Shown here in pieces: positions 1-17,107 of a stretch of DNA of 17,107 nt (positions are counted from its first letter, which is position 1; each line of letters starts with the position of its first letter). Below the pieces are notes generated by a model. It saw nothing but the letters and a program-made list of their open reading frames with translations, searched no databases and had not been told where the DNA came from. The translations under genes and the position numbers were made by a program. Source of the DNA: Verrucomicrobiota bacterium (GTDB lineage Bacteria > Verrucomicrobiota > Verrucomicrobiia > Opitutales > Cerasicoccaceae); the NCBI GenBank assembly GCA_039818205.1, contig JBCBUK010000029.1, positions 1 to 17,107 of the forward strand, read 5' to 3'.

Positions 1-346
1 GTTCATCGCTGAGCTGGGCTATTGCCTCCTTTGCAATATCAACCTTCTTTTCCAGCTCGGCGTTCTCGCGCTCAAGCTCGCGGTTCGATTCCTTCAGCTT
101 AACCACTTGGTGCTGAACCTTCGCCAGGTGCATAATCGCACCCACTGCGGTTAATTCCATATCTCCATCAAGATACTGCGCTACATCTGGGCACGCTCTT
201 GTTTGTTCGCTCATTGGTTCCTTTGGTTTGGTTTCCGGTATTTGGTCGTTCCAGATATATCCGCATTCGACACACCGGTTTGCTGTTGGTGAAAAAGGAA
301 TGCCGTCGTAACTGGTGCTTCCACATGCTGGGCATTCGTCGCTCAT
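1..346 (-). CDS. Hypothetical phage protein, N-terminal Zn-ribbon plus coiled coil (partial; runs off the window edge)
   Basis: Not in the ORF track. ATG at 346 overlaps the upstream TGA (ATGA). Reads MSDECPACGSTSYDGIPFSPTANRCVECGYIW...MSEQTRACPDV...KLKESNRELERENAELEKKVD with no stop before the edge. Two CxxC motifs. An internal ATG at 214 also has an AAGGA RBS. Confidence 0.75.
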   Translation of the reverse strand, partial: MSDECPACGSTSYDGIPFSPTANRCVECGYIWNDQIPETKPKEPMSEQTRACPDVAQYLDGDMELTAVGAIMHLAKVQHQVVKLKESNRELERENAELEKKVDIAKEAIAQLSDE

Positions 347-1422
347 TTCGCTCCCGCCATTTTCTCCGCCTCTCTGGGCGAAGGGGTTAACATCGGCACC
401 TCTCGAATCTGCAGTTCATCTGGCCATTCGAGAAGATCGCCGCCTTTCTTGTTTTTGGTGACCAAGCGGCCAGCTGCGAACCCTTCGCCATGCTCAACTA
501 GCTTCGCGCTATCGGGGAATTCGTATAAGTTGGCGTTGCAGGTCGTGGACAGTGCGCCGAGCTGCTTGACAAATACGGGAACATCTGCGGATTCGCATTG
601 CTGAACAATCGACTGTATCCAATCTATCGAGCATTCGCGGGCGTTTGGGCCACTCTCACCCCCGACTATCAGCCAATCGAGTTTTTCTTGAGTCCATGCT
701 GGTGCACTATACCAATCGCCAAAAACATCACCCTCCAAGGGCCGAAGTAAGGCTTCTCCGATCCCCTGAATCGGCATCTCGTCTATGTGAAGCGGCCCTA
801 ACAGGGGCTCGCATGACAGGAACCGCACCCGCGCTGGTATCTTCAGCAGTTCCGGTATGCGCTCATCGGCGCGCTGTTGATCTTCTACGCTCGTACCTAT
901 CCAAACGTTATGCGGAGTCCCCGATTGAACACCCTTGCGAAGCCCATGCCACTCATCGAGCCAGGCCGCTAGCCACTTACTTAAAGCACGATTTAGAGGC
1001 TTTAAGCGGGTATGGGCCTCATCGACCCACAATCGAGCCTCAGCTATGCGATCATACCACAGTTCAGGCCGCTTCGTGAGCAGCAGCCAGTCAAGGTGGG
1101 GCGTGCTGCAGATCAAATCCAACAAGTCAGCTAGCCACTCAATCGGTACCTCCGGATCAAGCCAATCGGCTAGCGATGCGCAAAACACTCGCGGCCTTGG
1201 ATTCATAGGAAAGCAACCCGCGATCTTGTTCCACCGAGTCGGCTTCTTCCAGTTCGCCTCACTGGTGCGCTGCCGAGGGTTGCCCTTGCCCCAGTTGACT
1301 TTTCCCAGGCGCTTATCCATGAGCGATTCGGCGTAGCAGTTGGCGCAGCCAGGGCTTACCTTCGTGCATCCGCTCCAGTGGTTGAACGTGTGGTCGGTCC
1401 ACTCTATTTTGCTATTCTCCAT
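343..1422 (-). CDS. DUF5131 / phage Gp37-Gp68 family protein (radical-SAM-like Cys motif)
   Basis: Family motifs SKIEWTDHTFN, GCTKVSPGCANCYA, LLLTKRP, NVWIGTSVEDQ, RFLSCEPLLG, DWLIVGGESGP, VPVFVKQLG. Start moved to ATG 1422, which follows a GGAGG RBS. Confidence 0.92.
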   Translation of the reverse strand: MENSKIEWTDHTFNHWSGCTKVSPGCANCYAESLMDKRLGKVNWGKGNPRQRTSEANWKKPTRWNKIAGCFPMNPRPRVFCASLADWLDPEVPIEWLADLLDLICSTPHLDWLLLTKRPELWYDRIAEARLWVDEAHTRLKPLNRALSKWLAAWLDEWHGLRKGVQSGTPHNVWIGTSVEDQQRADERIPELLKIPARVRFLSCEPLLGPLHIDEMPIQGIGEALLRPLEGDVFGDWYSAPAWTQEKLDWLIVGGESGPNARECSIDWIQSIVQQCESADVPVFVKQLGALSTTCNANLYEFPDSAKLVEHGEGFAAGRLVTKNKKGGDLLEWPDELQIREVPMLTPSPREAEKMAGAK

Positions 1423-1753
1423 CGCTCTGCCCTCCTTTCGCCTTCTGGATAGCTTTCTCGGCCTGCCGATGCGCTTCATGCTTGCGGGTGGCCCAAGCGT
1501 CCTGCGCTTCCATGCCCTCCTCCTCCAGCGGGAAATAGGATTGATGTGATGATAGTAACTCCTCCAGCGCCTCCAGTAGGTCCGGCGCGGCTTCTATGAG
1601 AGGCTTATCCCTATCGCGAACCTTGATCCTGCCCCCATCCTTTGTATCCACTACAAACAATATCGATTCTTCGGTGCCAGACTGAACCAGCCACTCAGGG
1701 TCTATGCCATCCCATTTCCACGGTCCCGGCGTGTGTTTCGTTTCTTCGCTCAT
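1412..1753 (-). CDS. Conserved hypothetical phage protein (HTPGPW...LIEAAPDLLEAL type)
   Basis: KHTPGPW and LIEAAPDLLEALEELL are motifs common in small phage early proteins. GAGGA RBS upstream. Confidence 0.8.
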   Translation of the reverse strand: MSEETKHTPGPWKWDGIDPEWLVQSGTEESILFVVDTKDGGRIKVRDRDKPLIEAAPDLLEALEELLSSHQSYFPLEEEGMEAQDAWATRKHEAHRQAEKAIQKAKGGQSDGE

Positions 1754-6170: not shown

Positions 6171-6290
6171 CTAGAATCCGCTCGGGAACGACGGCCACGC
6201 CTTTGTTTCGACGGTCGGCAGGTCTGGTGCCGAGCGGTAGCCGAGGTTATAGGTTGCGGTCTGAAACAACGCAGTGAGTATTTTTTTCAT
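6171..6290 (-). CDS. 39-aa small ORF coupled to the sensor kinase (candidate signalling-peptide precursor)
   Basis: Below the ORF-track cut-off. ATG (6290-6288) overlaps the kinase stop as TAATG. MKKILTALFQTATYNLGYRSAPDLPTVETKAWPSFPSGF, TAG at 6173-6171. Fills almost the whole gap to the convergent repressor gene. Confidence 0.55.
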   Translation of the reverse strand: MKKILTALFQTATYNLGYRSAPDLPTVETKAWPSFPSGF

Positions 6291-9200
6291 TATTGATGCT
6301 TTTGTGTGTTGGATGTTGATGTGGAGCCAATCTTATCAGGAACCTTCAAGATCAGCTCAAAGTAGAAAATCGCTCCGGCGGGCGTATTGTCTTTGATTTC
6401 CAAACGGCCGCCCATGCCAGTAACGAGCATTTGCGACAGATAGAGACCAAGACCGAGGTTTTTCTTGTCTTCACTGGTTGAAAAGTAGTCATCGAAAATC
6501 TTTAGTTTGAGGTGATCGGGGACGCCACCGCCGTTGTCGTGGACAGCAATCCGCAACCGCGCCTTATCCGCAGCGAGCTTCTCCGAGGAAAAATAAACCC
6601 TCACCAGTCCGAGATTGTCCATGAGGCTGGCGTGGCGGATTGCATTGCTGATAAGGTTGCTAACTACCTGGAAAATCTTGTCGCGGTCTCCACGAAAATC
6701 GCTCACCGGCAGCTGCTCCGCCTTCCACGGAATTTCAAATACAACGTTTTGTTTTTCCGCCTTTGGCTCATACACCTTCATGAGATCCAGCGCCAGGTAG
6801 TATGCATTGAAATCAACGTCGCGCAGCACCATTTTCCCGTCGACGATACGCGGAAACTGAATCATCCCGGAAACTAGCTGCATCGTCGTATCGAGCAGGT
6901 CTTGAACCTTTGCGCAATGCATCTGCGCCACTGGATCAGGCTTAACTATTTCATCAATCAAATAGACAGTCGCTCGAGCCGCATTGATCGGTTCCCCGAC
7001 CTCGTGCTTCAAGGCACGCAACATCCTGTTACCGGACTCTGAGGCCCGTTCGAAATTGCGATCATCCTGCTCGATCGTTTCCTTGAGTCGAGCATTCTCC
7101 AATCGGCGCGGAATACCGACCAAGAAGACCAACCCGACAAACCCACCAATGCCGATCAGACCTGCACCGGTTAGTGTGTACCATTTCAGATACCAGGGCG
7201 CGAGAATGGTTATTGCATAAGCCGAAACCTCGCTCAAGTTGCTAGAATCATCACGCGCCTGAAGCTCTAGCACGTATTCACCCGGCCAAAGACTAAAAAG
7301 GTTACTTGCGGGTTCAGAAGTAAATTCAGACCAATCTTGGCCGGCGATGCGCCAGCGATATGTGACTGGGCGATCAACCGCAGTTGAAGTAGGATGGTTA
7401 ACGGCTATGTGCTGAGCCGGAAACATCGTGACGATATTGTCTAGCGGTAAGAGTTCGCTGGAAGCCTCAACGGAAACGAGCCGCGGCGGAAGCGTCGTCG
7501 GAGTATCAAATACTTGCGGTGATTTGTATTCGATCATGCCGTTACCGGCGATCAAGAAAAGCTCACGCTCGCGATCATAGGTTACAAATCGTATCGGATC
7601 TGCTGCCTCAGCCTGCGGTAACGCATAGTCGGTTTTCCTAAACCCAGTTCCAATAAGCTCCAACCGCCTAAACCAGTAGAACCCCTCGCTGTCTGAGAAC
7701 AGGACCCAGGCCACGCTTTCACTTTCTACGGCGGCGTGAATTGTGTATGGGTTTGGATGGAAAAAATCTTCGTCGAGTGCGTTCGTTCGATAGAACGACT
7801 GTCGATTTGGGTCGTAAAAATAAAGGCCACGGTTGCACAGCACTGCCAATCGATCACCAAACATGAACGGGCGTGCCCAAAGCAACTCCTCCTGACCGAA
7901 ATTGTACGGCGAAACAATCACGAGGTCGATATCCTCCGCCGAATCCGGGTTGTCACTCGTAAGCGTTCCCCGCCACAACCCGTCCTTCGTTGACCCAAAA
8001 TAAAAGGTCTTTTCATTTACGCGAACAAAGGATGCCGGATTCTGCCAATCGACCTCAACGAATCGCCCAAGTTTCTCTATCTTGTCAGTAATACGGAAGA
8101 GTTGCATACCGGACACGCCGTAGCCGAGATAGATGCCAGGAAATTCGCTAAGCGGTAGCAACTGAATAATTCGAGCGATATTCGGCAGCTCGATCTTGGA
8201 ATTAGATCCTAACAACTCAACTTCCCAAAGGCGATTCACTACATAGGTATCGCCGACGGGCGCCATACCAACAAGGAAACCCTCGCAGATCTTCTCGACA
8301 TTTCCGTCTTCATAGCGAAATCCACCACTTTGCGCCGAAATGAGCGTTTGTCCATCGGCCCAGGGAAAAATCGAAGCGACCAAACCGATCCCGTGAAAGC
8401 GAGTATCCGTATCAATGCGAATCAACCCATTACTAAACGATGCCCACACAAAGCGGCCAGCGATCCGAGCGCTCCACATGTGCCCAGCACCAGGCTCAAC
8501 ATGATAAATACGCTCAAGCGACTCGCCATCTTGAAAGAACAGAGAATCAACACCAACGACCAAATACCCATCACGCCACGGTTTCACATCAAAGACGGTT
8601 ACACCGAGCGAATAATCCAGCTCGAAGCCATTACCACCAAGCGATAGCACGTTGCCTGAGAACGTGTAAAACTGGAGCTTACCATCAGTCAGCATGACCT
8701 CAATAATTCCTTCTCGGATCAGGTCATCATCAGGATATTCCAAAACAAATTTGCTCCCGTCCCAGCGGTTAAGACCGACCTTTCTTTGATGGACCCACAG
8801 CTCACCATCAATCACATATGATAGCAGTCGATACGAATTCGGCATCGGCCAAACCGTCACATCAGTCCCATCCCAAACAAACACATGCGTATCCCCAACC
8901 CAAAAAACTGATTCACCCAAAACATGGAGATTCCATACATTTGAGGGAATCGCTGGGCTATTTACGATGCGATCAATTAGCGACGTGTATGAAAAACTTC
9001 CGTCGACCATTCTTTCAACGTAGCCAATCTGACTCACCGCTCCGACCCAGATGCGACCATCCGGTCCAAGTACTAGCGACATAACCGTGTTGCCGTGATC
9101 AATATCAACCACCTCGAAAGATTCACCATCGTAGAAAAGCAACCCATCATTACAGCCTATCCAGACGAAACCGTCTGAGTCCTCGATCGTCATACGCACA

Positions 9201-9319
9201 TCATCCAAGAAAGGATGATCCTCACCGTCGAATGTCTTGGCTAAATAATCTGCTATCAATTCAGAACCAAACAAACACAAGACCATATTAACGACCCACA
9301 GTCGGAAAAAGAAACGCAT
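6290..9319 (-). CDS. Sensor histidine kinase with periplasmic beta-propeller and Y_Y_Y domains
   Basis: Signal-like N-terminus. Reg_prop-like repeats (IEDSDGFVWIGCNDGL; LGPDGRIWVG). Y_Y_Y (TYRWRIAG..WS...LWPGEYVLELQARD). TM after APWY. H-box LKHEVGEP, N-box NLISNAIRH, G1 DNGGGVP, F KIFDDYFST, G2 LGLGL. Confidence 0.95.
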   Translation of the reverse strand: MRFFFRLWVVNMVLCLFGSELIADYLAKTFDGEDHPFLDDVRMTIEDSDGFVWIGCNDGLLFYDGESFEVVDIDHGNTVMSLVLGPDGRIWVGAVSQIGYVERMVDGSFSYTSLIDRIVNSPAIPSNVWNLHVLGESVFWVGDTHVFVWDGTDVTVWPMPNSYRLLSYVIDGELWVHQRKVGLNRWDGSKFVLEYPDDDLIREGIIEVMLTDGKLQFYTFSGNVLSLGGNGFELDYSLGVTVFDVKPWRDGYLVVGVDSLFFQDGESLERIYHVEPGAGHMWSARIAGRFVWASFSNGLIRIDTDTRFHGIGLVASIFPWADGQTLISAQSGGFRYEDGNVEKICEGFLVGMAPVGDTYVVNRLWEVELLGSNSKIELPNIARIIQLLPLSEFPGIYLGYGVSGMQLFRITDKIEKLGRFVEVDWQNPASFVRVNEKTFYFGSTKDGLWRGTLTSDNPDSAEDIDLVIVSPYNFGQEELLWARPFMFGDRLAVLCNRGLYFYDPNRQSFYRTNALDEDFFHPNPYTIHAAVESESVAWVLFSDSEGFYWFRRLELIGTGFRKTDYALPQAEAADPIRFVTYDRERELFLIAGNGMIEYKSPQVFDTPTTLPPRLVSVEASSELLPLDNIVTMFPAQHIAVNHPTSTAVDRPVTYRWRIAGQDWSEFTSEPASNLFSLWPGEYVLELQARDDSSNLSEVSAYAITILAPWYLKWYTLTGAGLIGIGGFVGLVFLVGIPRRLENARLKETIEQDDRNFERASESGNRMLRALKHEVGEPINAARATVYLIDEIVKPDPVAQMHCAKVQDLLDTTMQLVSGMIQFPRIVDGKMVLRDVDFNAYYLALDLMKVYEPKAEKQNVVFEIPWKAEQLPVSDFRGDRDKIFQVVSNLISNAIRHASLMDNLGLVRVYFSSEKLAADKARLRIAVHDNGGGVPDHLKLKIFDDYFSTSEDKKNLGLGLYLSQMLVTGMGGRLEIKDNTPAGAIFYFELILKVPDKIGSTSTSNTQKHQ

Positions 9320-11055: not shown

Positions 11056-11973
11056 ATGGCAAACAAGAACTCAAAGACCGACGCTTACCAAATCGTAACC
11101 GACCGCGTAATACAGCTAATGGAGCAAGGAACCTGCCCATGGCATCGACCATGGCACACCTTAAATGCCGCTCCAAAGAACTTTCACTCAGACCATCAGT
11201 ATAGTGGAATCAACTGGATACTGTTGAATGCATTGGGATTCGAAATCCCGTTTTTCATGACGTTCAAGCAGGTAAAGGATCGCAAAGGCAGCATCCGGAA
11301 AGGCTCAAAGGGGCTCCCAGTGGTTTACTGGAACTTTGTAAAGCGCATCGATGAAAGCGGTGAAGAAAAGAAGATCCCGTTCCTAAAAACCTACAAAGTA
11401 TTCAACTGCGCTGATATTGAAGGAATCGAATTCCCCTGCCCTGAGTTACCCTCCCGAGAATTCAATCCGATTGAAGCCGCCGAGAAAGTGATTCAAAACT
11501 GGAAGGACTGCCCACCGATCAAACATGGTTCCAACCGCGCATGCTACCACCCCGACGACGACAAAATTGCCATGCCCAACAAGAGCCGATTCAAGAGCGA
11601 CCAAGAATACTATTCGGTCATGTTTCACGAAATGGCCCACGCCACCGGTCACCGCTCCCGCTTGAAACGCCTAAAGCCAGCAACTTTCGGTTCGAAAAAC
11701 TACGGCAAGGAAGAATTGGTGGCCGAAATGACAAGCGCCTTCCTTTGTGCTCACTGCGGAATTGATAATTCGGTTATCGAGAATCAAGCCGCTTACCTGA
11801 AGTGCTGGATCAACACACTAAAAGGCGATCCTCGTTTGATTATTACGGCCGCAACAGCAGCTCAAAAAGCTGCCAACTATATTCTCAACAAGACGCCTGC
11901 AGACCAATCCACCCCAGCCCAGAACGATAGAACGGAACCTCGAACTGAACAACTAGATCTGTTCGCTGCCTAG
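11056..11973 (+). CDS. ardC: ArdC-family antirestriction protein (ssDNA-binding DUF1738 plus zincin-like MPTase)
   Basis: YQIVTDRVIQLMEQGTCPWHRPW, YSGIN, FMTFKQ, IRKGSKG, YKVFN, FHEMAHATGH (HExxH), YGKEELVAE, AAYLKCWI. Confidence 0.95.
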   Translation: MANKNSKTDAYQIVTDRVIQLMEQGTCPWHRPWHTLNAAPKNFHSDHQYSGINWILLNALGFEIPFFMTFKQVKDRKGSIRKGSKGLPVVYWNFVKRIDESGEEKKIPFLKTYKVFNCADIEGIEFPCPELPSREFNPIEAAEKVIQNWKDCPPIKHGSNRACYHPDDDKIAMPNKSRFKSDQEYYSVMFHEMAHATGHRSRLKRLKPATFGSKNYGKEELVAEMTSAFLCAHCGIDNSVIENQAAYLKCWINTLKGDPRLIITAATAAQKAANYILNKTPADQSTPAQNDRTEPRTEQLDLFAA

Positions 11974-12319: not shown

Positions 12320-12571
12320 ATGCCAGCACCAGAAAATAACGATTACGCCGCAGGCATCCCGGGTCAGAACCGGGATGCTAATTGCCACTTTCGAACCTAC
12401 AGAACGCGAAAGGGAGCTTACAAATTGGCCAGCGAACTAGTAGGCGAAAAACTCACACCTTGGATTGAGCATCATCTCGACGACCCGGCGATTCGCATTC
12501 TCAGAGAGCGCGGCCGGGATGATGTAGCTGACGCGCTCCAGGCCATTATCGACGCTGAAGCCTCACGCTGA
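12320..12571 (+). CDS. Small putative RHH-like DNA-binding protein
   Basis: NCHFRTYRTRKGAYKLASELVGEKLTPWIEHHLD resembles the strand-helix-G-helix pattern. Last gene of the ardC operon. Confidence 0.55.
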   Translation: MPAPENNDYAAGIPGQNRDANCHFRTYRTRKGAYKLASELVGEKLTPWIEHHLDDPAIRILRERGRDDVADALQAIIDAEASR

Positions 12572-13759
12572 ATTGGCACTTCTCCGAACGGCCACCGGAG
12601 CGCGCGCTGGGATCGCCTTGACTAGGCTTGCATAGTGTTTCTCCGCTACTGCCACACTGTCACGAAGCGCCGTTGCGGCCGCATAGATCCCGTGATCCGT
12701 CGCTATCTCTGCCCCGAACTGCTTGCGTAACTCATGCAGCTTCTTCCGGCGCTCTGGTAAAAATTGAGCAACCCACTGGCACGCATCCCGGGCAATCAGG
12801 TTGTGCCGTTCGGTCTTCGTCTTGCCAGGAATCACGTATGCCGTTGGGCTCTCCGGCGGGCAAAGTTGTTGCCAACGGGCGAAAAGACCACGGTCGACCG
12901 CAACCCACCCCTCAGTTGCTTTTGGTTCATACTCCTCAAGCTCGCGCTCAACATCGGCCGCACGGTAAAAAATGCCGAGATGTAGCCCCGCGTCGCCGCG
13001 ATCGTCGAACCAATGCCACCGCAACCCCTCTATTTCACTGGCTCGCAGTCCACAATAGCGGGCCAGCTCAATCACAACTAGCAACCGCACGTCGTCGGCC
13101 TGGTTCGTAGCCAACGATTCATCAAGCTGAGCCATCAGGTCTGGCGGGATGGGGCGAAAGCGTTGATCATGCTCCTCTAACCGAGGAACCGCCAGAAAAT
13201 CGTCAATGAAAGGCAGGTTGAAACCATGATAAAGCTCCCGCCGAGCGACCTTAGAAAAAACATGCTGTGCACTGGCCAGGGCCGAATTCAGGCTCGCATT
13301 CAGCCTTTTGCCCGCCTCGGGTTGTTCACCCCGCTTGCGGCGCCGCCAGTCCAGCACAAACTCTTTACTCAAAACATCGGCCTTTACCTCAGTAGGTTCT
13401 AGCTTCGGATACATCACCTTAACGGCTCGCAAGAGCGCCTGAGCATTATCTAGAGCGGTCTTGGGCTTGATGTTGCTATGCTGGCCAACCTCCGCGACAT
13501 ACCGGTCAACAACTTCACCAATCGTCGGCACACCGTCGAGACGTTTTCGCTTCGGCGTGCCGTCTGTCGCCATCCCCATTTCATCTAAATAAATCTGATA
13601 GCCGATATCGCGCGCCGTGGGCTCATGAGTAGAACCTGTCGATCTACGAATTTTTCTCTCGACACGACGCCCAGCTTTTTCTTCATAGATCCTTTCCTCA
13701 ACATAGAAGACACCCTTCTTACCACGTTTTTGGAGATGCAACTCTTTCTTACCTTTCAC
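12563..13759 (-). CDS. int: Tyrosine recombinase / phage integrase
   Basis: N-terminal arm-binding-type region (VFYVEER...RRSTGS). Catalytic R (CGLRASEI), K (EPKAT), HxLR (LHELRKQFG), Y (EKHY). GTG start. Adjacent to the att site. Confidence 0.92.
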   Translation of the reverse strand: MKGKKELHLQKRGKKGVFYVEERIYEEKAGRRVERKIRRSTGSTHEPTARDIGYQIYLDEMGMATDGTPKRKRLDGVPTIGEVVDRYVAEVGQHSNIKPKTALDNAQALLRAVKVMYPKLEPTEVKADVLSKEFVLDWRRRKRGEQPEAGKRLNASLNSALASAQHVFSKVARRELYHGFNLPFIDDFLAVPRLEEHDQRFRPIPPDLMAQLDESLATNQADDVRLLVVIELARYCGLRASEIEGLRWHWFDDRGDAGLHLGIFYRAADVERELEEYEPKATEGWVAVDRGLFARWQQLCPPESPTAYVIPGKTKTERHNLIARDACQWVAQFLPERRKKLHELRKQFGAEIATDHGIYAAATALRDSVAVAEKHYASLVKAIPARAPVAVRRSANSA

Positions 13760-13805
13760 AATCGTCCCTTCGCCGCTGGTTCAACATTCGGACCTGTCCT
13801 TGTCC

Positions 13806-14132
13806 TTGGCGACAAATTGGCGGCGGATTTGGCGACAAAGTCAAGGTTAAAGAACCGCCTCCAGGTTACAGTGGATCGCTCAGGAAAATTCGTTGACGAA
13901 GCAATAAACGCTAAATATCAACGACTTACATCACTTTTATAAGTTTCGGGTCGGTAGCTCAATCGGTAGAGCAGTTGCCTTTTAAATAGGTATCCCGTTT
14001 ACGACGGATTGCGAGCATTTACCAAGTTATCGCTATATCAACGACTTATGAAATTGCAATTCCCAGAAGGATGCGAGGAATTGCGACGAAACTATCCATT
14101 ATTCGCCAAAAGGTGTATAAAAAGGTGTCCAA
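13806..14132. other. attP: arm-type repeats, two IHF sites and tRNA-derived core
   Basis: TTGGCGACAAA at 13806 and 13829 with TTGGCGGCGGA between. IHF consensus WATCAANNNNTTR matched as TATCAACGACTTA at 13916-13928 and 14036-14048. AAAAGGTGT at 14108 and 14120. tRNA fragment in the centre. Confidence 0.85.
13948..13985 (+). tRNA. 5' half of tRNA-Lys(UUU), nt 1-38 only (att identity block, not a complete tRNA)
   Basis: GGGTCGG-TA-GCTC-AATCGGTA-GAGC-A-GTTGC-CTTTTAA: acceptor 5' strand, full D arm, anticodon 5' strand and 7-nt loop with TTT. Similarity stops exactly after the loop (ATAGG instead of GCAAY). No T-arm follows. Confidence 0.9.
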
Positions 14133-14265
14133 CTAATTCACTTTTGACCTGAGCGCCTTCCAGGTCTCCCAAAGAAAAAGCTGCCCGTGTTTGAGGCAGC
14201 ATTGCAAGTGGACGCACGCATTCGGCCAGTGCTCTCCGGCGGCTATTCTTTCGGCGGTCTTGGCA

Positions 14266-14808
14266 TCATTCTTCACTGGCTTGGACTGGCACGGCTCGGT
14301 TCCAGACGCGAGACCCCTGGTTATCGATCTCCGCAGCCCAGCGTTCAACACTGGCAATGCGAGCGTCCTGCTTGCCATTGACGTAGGCCTGAGAGACCTC
14401 AGCCTCTCTGAGTCGGTCAGTTTGTAGTTCAATAAACTCCAGCCATTTGGAATCCCAGGTCGTCTGGATCGCTGCCTTTCCCCGCTCTTCAGCCGACTGG
14501 ATTGCCTGCTCAAGCACTATTTGGTTCAAGTCGGCCCGTTCCTTGGCGGCTTCTTCTAATGTCGTTGCAAGCGGCTCGATCGAACTCTGCAGCATCCAGA
14601 CCAGCGCGCCGCCAACGATAGCCATTCCAGCGAAGATTGTTGCATATTCGGGCTTACGGTTCTTTTGCTCAGAGACCAACCAGGCCTTAATTTCACCCAG
14701 TGAGGCTTCGACGCCGGTCATTCGAGATCCGATTGCTGCGACATCAGTTTTTAGTGACCCTAGGTCCTCCTCAACGGCTTGCAAGCGGGTCTGGTGATCT
14801 TCAGTCAT
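14266..14808 (-). CDS. Coiled-coil single-TM membrane protein (lysis-region, holin/XhlA-like position)
   Basis: Heptad N-terminus (RLQAVEEDLGSLKTDVAAI), TM IFAGMAIVGGALVWML, coiled-coil C-terminus. Near the end of the late operon. Confidence 0.65.
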   Translation of the reverse strand: MTEDHQTRLQAVEEDLGSLKTDVAAIGSRMTGVEASLGEIKAWLVSEQKNRKPEYATIFAGMAIVGGALVWMLQSSIEPLATTLEEAAKERADLNQIVLEQAIQSAEERGKAAIQTTWDSKWLEFIELQTDRLREAEVSQAYVNGKQDARIASVERWAAEIDNQGSRVWNRAVPVQASEE

Positions 14809-14812
14809 TAGT

Positions 14813-14974
14813 TCAATTGATTACTAGTCGTGCCTTGACTGGCTTGTCGCTCTTGCACAGTGAACGCACCTTCCAGTTGTCCGCCTGTGTGTGAACGCGA
14901 ATACTTTGAAACCCGCCAGGCTGATCCAGCTTGGCGAGTTCCTTTGGGCATAGATAAACCACCTTCTCGATCAC
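14813..14974 (-). CDS. 53-aa hypothetical protein
   Basis: Not in the track. GTG overlaps the upstream TGA (GTGA), GGAGG upstream. MIEKVVYLCPKELAKLDQPGGFQSIRVHTQADNWKVRSLCKSDKPVKARLVIN. Ends 4 nt before the next ATG. Confidence 0.65.
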   Translation of the reverse strand: MIEKVVYLCPKELAKLDQPGGFQSIRVHTQADNWKVRSLCKSDKPVKARLVIN

Positions 14975-15600
14975 AGTTCGCCACCCTCCCGAGCTTGGGT
15001 AATGATCGTCTTACCCTCTTCGGTGCCGCTGAAAAAATCCATTTGGCTATCCGTAAGCGGCTTGGTTAGCTGATTGGTTCCGGCGGTGAAGTAGGTAATG
15101 GCGCCCTCGGCCATGATCTCGGCTATATCGGCCGGCAGTTGGAAGGCTTGCTCATAATAGCTTTTGGCCAAGTCTGTTTGCAGCGCCAGTGCTTCGACGT
15201 TTGCCGTTCCGCTCGCTTTCTTCGCCGTGAACAGCAATCCGCCATTGTAGATCTGCGTTGGGTTGTTCACGTCTTTGATGTCGATGTTCTGGCCCGTGCT
15301 GTGAGCGTGATTCGAAAACAGTCGCGGATTGCCGGGATCAACCAAGATCGAAACTTCTTCGTATTGGCTATCCTTCGGATTCTGCCACGAGGCATCAACT
15401 TGCGCTGTCTGGTAGATGATCTCGCCGTTCTGGTCGGTTGCTGGAACATAACCGCCTCCAGGCCCGACAACCATCACAGGCGTTTTGGTCGTGTTCTTGT
15501 AGGAGGATTCACTGGCAAGATAGTTATCTACCCCACAGCCCGTTAACATCAGCGCTGATACCGCCAACGTGAGAAACAATAATGCTTGAATGCGTTTCAT
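14971..15600 (-). CDS. Phage lipoprotein
   Basis: MKRIQALLFLTLAVSALMLTGC lipobox. ATGA overlap with the upstream gene. Confidence 0.8.
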   Translation of the reverse strand: MKRIQALLFLTLAVSALMLTGCGVDNYLASESSYKNTTKTPVMVVGPGGGYVPATDQNGEIIYQTAQVDASWQNPKDSQYEEVSILVDPGNPRLFSNHAHSTGQNIDIKDVNNPTQIYNGGLLFTAKKASGTANVEALALQTDLAKSYYEQAFQLPADIAEIMAEGAITYFTAGTNQLTKPLTDSQMDFFSGTEEGKTIITQAREGGEL

Positions 15601-16076
15601 GCTATTTTCGTATTTTTGATTAGTTTCTTTGAGAAAAATTTGGCGTTCAAGGGGTTCGGAGTGAGCTCAACAATATCCTTAATTTCATTATATTTTAGAG
15701 CGGCCTCCGCATAGGGATACATGCCATCGGTCGTGCCGAAGACTAAGCCTACATACTGGCTTTTCTTCACAGTCCACGGATCCCAGCTGAGCATGGGATT
15801 AACGCCACGAGTCGAGAGCGTCCACTTGTGCGGCGGCAGTTTCTTAGCTCCAAGCAAACGGGCAAAGAAACTAGGGTATCGATTGATCTTTTTGACCTGG
15901 TGGCTGACTTGGCCAATCCCCTCGATTTCGAACAAAACGACCATATCAGGTTGGACAAATTCAAATGGCCAGTGAGTGACCAGGGTCCAGCCGTAAGGGC
16001 TGTTCAAGGGCTTCATGCTGACGCCCGAACTTGGAAGCTCGTATGTCTCCCCACGCTTAAGAGTTTCGCGAATCAT
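15597..16076 (-). CDS. S24/S26-family serine peptidase-like protein (Ser/His, signal peptidase S26B-like)
   Basis: SSGVSMKP, PDMVVLF, VSHQV, STRGVN, WDPWTV...YVGLV follow the S26 boxes SGSMxP / GD / HRV / TKGDN / DP...VG. No TM anchor and no HTH. Confidence 0.65.
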   Translation of the reverse strand: MIRETLKRGETYELPSSGVSMKPLNSPYGWTLVTHWPFEFVQPDMVVLFEIEGIGQVSHQVKKINRYPSFFARLLGAKKLPPHKWTLSTRGVNPMLSWDPWTVKKSQYVGLVFGTTDGMYPYAEAALKYNEIKDIVELTPNPLNAKFFSKKLIKNTKIA

Positions 16077-16560
16077 CTTGGTGTTCCGTTATTAAGTTGC
16101 TCAATTCCATAGGCACCTCGCCTGCGCGGATCTTCTCGCTCAGAACTTGGTAAACCTCGCTCGAAGGGCTGCCGTTAAATCCGGTCAGCCATCCCCATTG
16201 GACGCCGAGAAAGCACAGAACCGCCCGCAAGCGTGCCCGTGGAATGCCTTGAGATAGCATCTCGGACCCTGCCCAGATAGCGAAGCGCACATCGCTCAAG
16301 ACCGCTGCCGGCCAAGTCTCGCGATCCGATTGGTCGTGACCCCCTGCCGATTTGTTGATCCAGTCCTTTTTGACTCCAATAAAAGGAACCGCTTCGACCC
16401 ATGAAGGAATGCTAGCGCGGTCGGTAATCTGTGGCTTTACCTGGATCCGCGATCGCTCAACGCCCTTTGAATCGAATCGGACGATGACATAGGAATTCTG
16501 CTGCAAGTAATAGTCTCGCCACAGGTGCACATAGTCCGCGTTTCCTTCAAATTCGATCAC
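16057..16560 (-). CDS. DUF1353-like phage protein
   Basis: ITDRASIP...SAGGHD...SDVRF...FLGVQWG parallels the TDxASIP / AxxHD motif. Likely start GTG 16560. Confidence 0.65.
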   Translation of the reverse strand: MIEFEGNADYVHLWRDYYLQQNSYVIVRFDSKGVERSRIQVKPQITDRASIPSWVEAVPFIGVKKDWINKSAGGHDQSDRETWPAAVLSDVRFAIWAGSEMLSQGIPRARLRAVLCFLGVQWGWLTGFNGSPSSEVYQVLSEKIRAGEVPMELSNLITEHQDDSRNS

Positions 16561-16588
16561 ATAGGCAATGATAATGCCTGTGGTTAAA

Positions 16589-16897
16589 CTATGAGTCTGA
16601 GATGATAGCGGCCCCGCCGGTCTCTTGCAATCGATCCCGCAGCTGCTCAATAATAATAGTCTGATTCGCTATCACGTCACGCATATCCTCAACAAGGTCT
16701 CGTAATGCTTCGCATTCGGCCTGAGTTGGAGTCGCCGAGAACGAAATCGCTGTCACTGCCCCATCCACGGGAAGGCTCGCGTCATCCACATCAGCAACCG
16801 CGGCCAGAGGTTCCAAGGGCTCAACCTCGAATGTTCCGTTGTCGGATCCCGATCTTACTTTTACGATTTTTCCTATGTCTGATGCTTCGATTGCCAT
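16589..16897 (-). CDS. Small virion fibre-like protein
   Basis: AAVADV...FSATPTQAECEALRD...IANQ...LRDRLQETG resembles trimeric head/tail-fibre C-terminal motifs. Confidence 0.55.
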   Translation of the reverse strand: MAIEASDIGKIVKVRSGSDNGTFEVEPLEPLAAVADVDDASLPVDGAVTAISFSATPTQAECEALRDLVEDMRDVIANQTIIIEQLRDRLQETGGAAIISDS

Positions 16898-16902
16898 GAT
16901 AC

Positions 16903-17107
16903 TTAAGTTTGTGGTTCAATTGCGACATTGCCCGCATCGTCAACCATAGCGTTTCCGGCTGCGTCAACGGCTTGATTTACGCCTACGATTCCAACCCAAT
17001 ATGAATATTGGCCACGGGCTCCGAAGCCGTTGTTCCTGCTCGTTACTGCTACTCTCAGGTCTAGGCGGCCCGGCGTGATAGTGAGATAGTGAAAGAATGC
17101 GGCGGTG
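16903..17107 (-). CDS. C-terminus of a probable tail protein (partial)
   Basis: Open frame from the edge: TAAFFHYLTITPGRLDLRVAVTSRNNGFGARGQYSYWVGIVGVNQAVDAAGNAMVDDAGNVAIEPQT, TAA at 16905-16903. FN3-like end. Confidence 0.6.
   Translation of the reverse strand, partial: TAAFFHYLTITPGRLDLRVAVTSRNNGFGARGQYSYWVGIVGVNQAVDAAGNAMVDDAGNVAIEPQT

Follow-up and report, generated by a model that had tools for sequence, protein, structure and literature searches.

A tRNA-Lys(UUU) 5' half between phage genes in a marine Verrucomicrobiota bacterium: probable inner junction of two tandem prophages with reversed tRNA polarity

A 5' half of tRNA-Lys(UUU) with phage genes on either side probably marks the inner junction of two prophages inserted in tandem in the tRNA-Lys(UUU) gene, both with reversed polarity; the probability of this reading is put at roughly two in three. 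Reversed tRNA targeting is a rare but already described kind of integration. The window, which is the whole stretch of 17,107 nt that was analysed, corresponds to positions 1-17107 of contig C29 (21,865 nt, with a run of N at C29:17108-17205) in the 4.85-Mb genome of the organism (G000). C-numbers refer to contigs of this genome and other G-numbers to other genomes. The prophage to the left of the fragment is called W and the one to the right V, and their integrases Int(W) and Int(V).

The fragment occupies positions 13948-13985 of the plus strand (GGGTCGG...CTTTTAA) and comprises nt 1-38 of the tRNA: the 5' strand of the acceptor stem, the D arm, the 5' strand of the anticodon stem and the loop CTTTTAA (13979-13985, plus strand), the presumed crossover region. 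It is identical at 38 of 38 positions to nt 1-38 of the organism's own tRNA-Lys(UUU) gene (C5:2252-2324), and a blastn-short search of the 4.85-Mb genome with the 38-nt fragment gave an E value of 4e-15. Past nt 38 the window reads ATAGG and the tRNA GCAAT, so that the copy breaks off right after the last base of the anticodon loop. A first-pass annotation, made from the letters of the DNA, had described a half with this very end point, and the gene on C5 bears it out. By itself, the fragment is not a tRNA gene. ARAGORN called no tRNA genes in the window, and the Rfam tRNA model scored the fragment at 15.8 bits against a gathering score of 29, aligning the 5' part alone.

To the left of the fragment lies the gene for Int(W), a divergent tyrosine integrase of 398 aa (12563-13759, minus strand) that is transcribed away from the tRNA fragment and starts 188 nt from it. 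A tyrosine integrase thus stands at the end of the element that adjoins tRNA sequence. Int(W) matches the PHROG_1 integrase family over residues 10-348 (E 5.8e-16). Its score against Pfam PF00589 is 24.5 bits, below the cut-off of 27.1, and reaches 27.5 with neighbouring stretches in the genome search. The Arg of GLR, HELR and the Tyr of HY are kept in an alignment with seven homologues, and the third His/Trp position is Asp throughout the clade. These account for R, HxxR and Y of the catalytic set R-K-H-R-H/W-Y. Int(W) represents a divergent subfamily barely recognised by Pfam. It is the only gene of its type in the genome at E<=1e-10. Further left, the prophage early region encodes an ArdC-like antirestriction/metallopeptidase protein (11056-11973, plus strand), a histidine kinase of 1009 aa with Reg_prop repeats (6290-9319, minus strand) and a DUF5131 protein (343-1479, minus strand), together with a DUF4145 protein and RHH and HTH regulators. 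Homologues of the histidine kinase occupy the same place in sibling prophages on C13 (49% amino-acid identity) and C1 (24%), and others are encoded on C33, C30 and C3.

To the right, an arm designated X (13986-14147), read here as the far arm (P') of prophage V, is followed by a conserved module on the minus strand (14148-14275), consisting of the 3' end of a small gene and a terminator-like hairpin (14180-14200). This module starts the tail-side block and is 92-94% identical to C24:30150-30277 and C22:856-971. The late tail-side genes of the right-hand prophage (14266-17107, minus strand), small ORFs among them, all read towards the core, and the block is collinear with C24:30150-36764. Past the N gap, C29 continues with a tail module that includes a minor tail protein (phrog_396, E 1.9e-44). 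The 98-N run itself falls inside an ORF of 1036 aa (C29:16903-20013, minus strand) whose product shares 68% identity with one encoded on C24. With Int(W) on the left and the minor tail protein on the same contig to the right, phage or mobile genes do lie on both sides, as the first reading of the sequence had it.

The genome holds three copies of the 5' part of this tRNA: nt 1-42 on C11 (C11:70341-70300), nt 1-38 in the window and the intact gene on C5. All three match from nt 1 onwards, and the sequences that precede them are unrelated. The integrase-side arm of W, P(W) (13760-13947, 188 nt), is wholly unlike the sequences upstream of the other two copies up to tRNA nt 1 and would lie upstream of the rebuilt tRNA if W alone were integrated. 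Upstream of the C11 half are host PEP-CTERM and acyltransferase genes; downstream of it is a converging gene for a virion protein of 1653 aa. Two PEP-CTERM genes flanking the C11 prophage were compared as possible duplicates and are not duplicates. The intact gene has Int(V) (C5:821-2180; PF00589, 68.1 bits) divergent and 71 nt upstream, and host efflux genes downstream. Int(V) and Int(W) are unrelated by BLASTP. Each copy lies on a contig of its own, and their order and orientation come from 77-mer links alone. The identity from nt 1, and the 5'-half repeats of relatives described below, support the claim that the element adjoining Int(W) carries the 5' part of the tRNA, the reverse of the usual 3' arrangement.

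Short motifs in the arms tie each flank of the fragment to a different partner. Three tandem TTGGCG(A/G)C.. repeats in P(W) (13806-13839, plus strand) are candidate arm-type integrase sites. Clusters of at least three TTGGCG.C within 70 nt occur only three times in the 4.85-Mb genome, and two of the three adjoin tRNA-Lys 5' halves, at 13806-13839 of the window and at C11:70193-70232. Right arm X has no TTGGCG cluster. It has instead the motif AAAAGGTGTA.AAAAG..GTCCAAC (14108-14135), which recurs at C5:2173-2198, between Int(V) and the intact tRNA; the pattern AAAAGGTGTA.AAAAG..GTCCAAC has only these two hits in the genome. Other short motifs common to the window and C5, such as CAATTCCCA (window 14057, C5:2355), are within chance (blastn-short E of about 7).

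The contigs themselves can be linked, since their ends overlap by exact 77-mers. The path runs from rc(C29) to C58 and on to either C31 or rc(C32), C58 being common to C13 as well. C31 leads into C11:58493-58569, from which tail genes run to the nt 1-42 half, which then forms a direct repeat with the half in the window, and C17 starts at C11:58754-58830. The 338-bp repeat C11:58493-58830 can thus be entered from C11-left or C31 and left towards C11-right or C17. This repeat lies inside a tail gene of about 930 aa and is common to C11, the right end of C31 and the left end of C17. In the assembly, the prophage on C11 is bounded by a tRNA-Lys 5' half on one side and by a tRNA-Phe 3' part on the other, a hybrid that is probably an unresolved or chimeric join at the 338-bp repeat.

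Only one pairing of the contigs gives matching att ends to every prophage. On C17, tail genes run up to the 3' end of an intact tRNA-Phe, and on C11-left a displaced tRNA-Phe segment (nt 30-76) adjoins its integrase; C11-left and C17 together give the Phe prophage. C13 has tRNA-Pro followed by an integrase gene, and 3' remnants of tRNA-Pro are found on C24; C13, C58, rc(C32) and rc(C24) give the Pro prophage. Because these remnants lie on C24, C32 is left for the Pro prophage and C31 for W. C11-right, C31, C58 and C29-left then give W, of about 45.2 kb, between two tRNA-Lys 5' halves in direct orientation. C31 encodes a primase/helicase and structural proteins, C11-right encodes virion proteins and C29-right has a tail module of its own. 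Therefore W has no need of the right-hand genes of the window. The TTGGCG.C clusters support the pairing for W independently of the assembly graph. Each member of the array would thus have its own integrase and its own tRNA fragment: W has Int(W) and the fragment on C11, and V has Int(V) and the fragment in the window.

Read in the orientation of the tRNA, the proposed array would begin with the host flank (C11 above 70341) and the 5' half of nt 1-42. W would follow, from the tail genes C11:70299-58570 through C31, C58 and window 13947-1 in reverse, ending in Int(W) and its arm. After the second 5' half (nt 1-38), V would extend from window 13986 onwards through an unassembled middle to C5:1-2251 with Int(V). 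The intact tRNA-Lys (C5:2252-2324) and then the host efflux genes would close the array. Strand exchange by each integrase would take place within the 7-nt anticodon loop or beside it. The 5' half that belonged to the host would be left at the far end of the element, and the working tRNA would be rebuilt from the 5' half of the element and the 3' half of the host. Transcription of the tRNA would then have to start in the integrase-side arm of the element. The five 5'-half repeats that were found all end 0-4 nt past the anticodon loop, which supports a crossover at or near the loop, as had first been suggested.

Several observations sit less easily with two tandem prophages. The array is not contiguous in the assembly: two repeats, C58 and the one of 338 bp, lie on the path for W, across the second of them the assembler left C11 in one piece, and the middle of V is missing. 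Five genomes of the same genus yielded no empty site; in them tRNA-Lys does not adjoin homologues of either G000 flank, and in G001 it adjoins a region whose G000 counterpart (C4:164.5 kb) is without a tRNA. Also on this side of the balance are four relatives whose divergent integrase comes without a 5'-half repeat in the sequence read, a promoter scan that came out negative, and the TATCCCG of arm X, all described below. The arms also hold an exact direct repeat of 14 nt, ATATCAACGACTTA, at 13915-13928 and 14035-14048 (both plus strand), each copy about 60 nt from the centre of the loop and one on each side of the core. It fits WATCAANNNNTTR, the E. coli IHF consensus. Two such sites around the core would be the look expected of one functional attP.

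The first-pass annotation had indeed taken the site for an attP, with both flanks belonging to one phage. C29 would then come from a temperate phage genome that is free, circular or plasmid-like, or else from a copy that has been excised. A lambdoid genome in its vegetative form has the order seen here, tail genes, core, integrase and early genes, and the 14-nt IHF-like repeat is symmetric about the core. In addition, the arms of G070 and G095, whose integrases are the two closest homologues, have repeats like the TATCCCG of X (13990-13996), and this motif could reflect Int(W)-type binding on X. The right end of C29 has no recorded neighbour or overlap, so that closure is possible; no circular closure was seen. 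However, the two arms of the fragment lack the shared arm-type sites of a single element, with the 14-mer speaking the opposite way: the only partner of the left-arm TTGGCG cluster adjoins the C11 half and not the right arm, and the right arm shares its twice-only motif with the arm of Int(V). There is no second gene of the Int(W) type to which the arm of the C11 half could belong. From the left end of C29 through C58, the choice of C31 gives W a complete tail module elsewhere, whereas with C32 the proline and phenylalanine prophages would be left with att ends that do not match. The 14-mer itself could be a host-factor site whose strong consensus is shared between elements. Thus, an attP is unlikely, and another prophage is the most likely owner of the right flank; the matching 3' half of the tRNA is in effect found at the far end of another insertion, on C5, an outcome that the first-pass annotation had itself named as telling against its reading.

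Homologous recombination among related prophages could also have made the junction, in which case the neighbours of the fragment would say nothing of either attP. At least five related prophages are present in the genome, with common segments that are 70-100% identical and with swapped int/att modules, and C11, if correctly assembled, would itself be a hybrid of this kind (tRNA-Lys 5' half and tRNA-Phe 3' part). Yet the break coincides exactly with the end of the anticodon loop, where five independent 5'-half repeats also end, and does not lie inside shared phage genes. Moreover, if two prophages in direct orientation recombined reciprocally, the chromosome that carries both would be expected to split, and the unresolved 338-bp repeat explains the hybrid C11 more simply; recombination is accordingly quite improbable. 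Least probable of all is that C29 falsely joins two loci across the 38-nt repeat. The core is present three times in the genome, and unitigs in the k=31 contigs of DNA run X1 (Logan; depths are per contig) break there. The 77-nt overlaps of the contig ends indicate k=77, longer than the 38-nt repeat, and the join would therefore have needed real 77-mers spanning both flanks.

Integrated forms of the same polarity occur in other genomes. Matches to the 5' half were sought in 41 genomes, and homologues of Int(W) in 301 genomes of the order (E<=1e-10). Matches confined to the 5' half were found in four of the 41 genomes, and Int(W) homologues in 22 of the 301, the own genome included in both counts. 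The homologues define 23 other loci. At five of them a full tRNA is divergent from the integrase gene, with the 5' ends facing: Lys-UUU in G095, Lys-CUU in G070 (both integrases 40% identical to Int(W)), Leu in G186, Asn in G121 and Thr in G146. Seven loci have the usual order, tRNA then integrase, and at 11 a tRNA is absent from the 1.5-kb flanks. A 5'-half repeat near the tRNA is missing at four of the five divergent loci, within the sequence available or read: 60 kb in G095, 17 kb up to the contig end in G186, and 40 kb each in G121 and G146.

The fifth, G070, has a 41-nt 5'-half repeat 45.3 kb upstream of the tRNA on a single contig. The island between repeat and tRNA is non-phage, with IS elements, a methylase and a TIR protein. 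Another tRNA lies 20 nt upstream of the displaced half, and the island parts it from tRNA-Lys(CUU)-tRNA-Thr; therefore an internal transcription start would be needed, and of all the cases this one makes the strongest argument for a start carried by the element. In G013 and G012, likewise on single contigs, 40-nt 5'-half repeats bracket elements of 10.4 kb and 4.5 kb. The arms upstream of the intact tRNA are nearly identical in these two genomes, whereas the host flanks differ. The integrase of G013 is divergent, 80 nt from the tRNA, and unrelated to Int(W). The integrated form that the first-pass annotation had asked for is thus seen whole in G070, G013 and G012; in the own genome it is spread over three contigs. 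Broader searches were of no help in deciding between attP and junction. Among genome contigs there was one distant relative of Int(W) (34%, a Chthoniobacter MAG), and among metagenome contigs there were five distant or short matches. IMG/VR gave seven Int(W)-like loci (33-35% identity over the catalytic half); ARAGORN found a tRNA in none of the seven, and Rfam, run on five of them, found no partial tRNA at E<=1.

Within the own genome, nine integrases are adjacent to tRNA sequence. Four have the reversed and four the usual arrangement, and one lies beside a displaced 3' part. The tRNA-Ala(GGC) genes (C44:1-1500 and C9:18570-18670) have two alternative upstream sequences, both ending in a near-identical stretch of 24 nt, and on C44 an Int(V)-like integrase is divergent from the tRNA. 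This is another reversed-polarity site, perhaps polymorphic or duplicated. On C7 (95003-104929), the tRNA-Arg(UCU) gene is preceded, at a distance of 9.8 kb and in its own orientation, by a 38-nt 5' half that is 97% identical. The interval is without an integrase and contains an RND efflux system (AcrB, HlyD, OEP).

A phage promoter driving tRNA-Lys(UUU) is plausible and unproven. The first-pass annotation had proposed TTGACG (13893-13898, plus strand) as its -35 element. The position of this hexamer, at -55 from tRNA nt 1, is within the native range: TTG[AC]C occurs between -35 and -75 in 19 of the 50 native tRNA genes of the genome, and the typical upstream region has an A/T-rich tract, TTG[AC]C at -40 to -58 and then a weak T-rich -10. 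An acceptable -10 is lacking: TATCAA stands 17 nt downstream, and the site fails the consensus scan. In the region 13600-14300, a sigma-70 consensus scan found no promoter-like site, with 0.8 expected in shuffles, and the V arm on C5, which precedes the working tRNA-Lys gene, has no -35 of the TTG[AC]C type. A further consequence drawn at first, that the prophage would control an essential tRNA, is weakened by a second tRNA-Lys(UUU) gene of other sequence (C16:13079-13150), which lies within a cluster of eight tRNA genes. That cluster (C16:13079-14107) also includes a tRNA with the anticodon ATT, and it looks like a mobile-element tRNA cluster.

The 14-nt repeat has counterparts near other tRNA genes. 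Read on the opposite strand, as TAAGTCGTTGAT, it is similar to a motif found at -24..-10 of five other tRNA genes, and a TAAGTCGTTGAT-like motif is also present in the G070 arm that follows the 5' half. TAAGTC (AAAGTC on C9), whose reverse complement is part of the window 14-mer, stands exactly at -24..-19 from tRNA nt 1 and is followed by a T-rich stretch in five of 50 tRNA genes, on C5, C44, C48, C17 and C9. The TAAGTC motif may be a candidate host-factor or integrase site.

An attP of the lambda type consists of a core, arm-type Int sites and IHF sites. The arrangement here is similar in having clusters of short repeats 110-140 nt from the core near the start of int and 70-110 nt beyond the core in the partner arm, with IHF-consensus-like sites between arms and core, all of them candidate sites read from the letters of the DNA. 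It is unlike lambda in that Int(W) belongs to a divergent subfamily and that the HU/IHF-family hits of the host stay below the curated himA cut-off (60.6 bits against 120.25). Closer in kind are the organism's own tRNA-Pro (C13) and tRNA-Phe (C11/C17) prophages, which also target tRNAs and share early and tail genes at 45-98% amino-acid identity. Unlike W, they carry the 3' part of the tRNA (nt 30-76 of tRNA-Phe; nt 52-76 and 57-78 of tRNA-Pro) and leave the host promoter in charge. The tRNA-Phe repeat begins just 5' of the anticodon loop, and the tRNA-Pro remnants comprise the T arm and 3' end only. The integrases of both have no BLASTP similarity to Int(W) beyond an active-site patch.

Integrative elements with reversed tRNA target orientation were reportedly described by Zhao and Williams in 2002, in J Bacteriol 184:859. 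As in those elements and in the 5' class of Islander, a tyrosine integrase is found together with an element-borne 5' part from nt 1, a displaced 5' fragment upstream, an anticodon-centred crossover and an element arm that serves as the upstream region of the tRNA. Unlike them, two elements with unrelated integrases are apparently stacked at one tRNA, and the window holds an inner junction and not an attP or a simple attL or attR. Table 1 of the Islander report lists 3919 islands, 3760 with a 3' fragment and 159 with a 5' fragment, in keeping with the rarity first assumed for 5'-carrying elements; the report also gives 2083 anticodon-centred sites and 125 tandem arrays of two or more (PMC4383910). 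As in such arrays, each member has its own integrase and fragment, the repeats are direct and an intact gene stands at one end. The usual arrays have 3' parts downstream of the gene; here the 5' parts lie upstream, and the upstream region therefore comes from whichever arm stands last before the gene, at present that of V.

These comparisons bear on how prophages of this kind are recognised. A tRNA half with phage genes on both sides need not be an attP, since tandem arrays look alike, and draft contigs that cross short repeats of sibling prophages can yield mismatched att ends. The site adds a well-documented bacterial example of reversed tRNA targeting, with an internal contrast in sister prophages of the same genome that have the usual 3' polarity at tRNA-Pro and tRNA-Phe. 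Its local twists are the tandem stacking, an integrase clade that holds both polarities, and the high reversed share in the genome (four of nine tRNA-adjacent integrases, against about 4% of the islands in the tabulated Islander counts). It is conceivable, if rather doubtful, that elements of this marine bacterium and of its order commonly integrate by taking over the 5' half and the upstream region of tRNA genes, with an integrase clade that switches polarity freely and with stacking integrants, where the promoter of tRNA-Lys(UUU) belongs to the one that came last next to the gene. From where the rebuilt tRNA is transcribed matters only if the tRNA is under prophage control. If so, and if its promoter is coupled to that of the divergent int gene or to regulators of the prophage, the state of the prophage would set the supply of this tRNA in the host.
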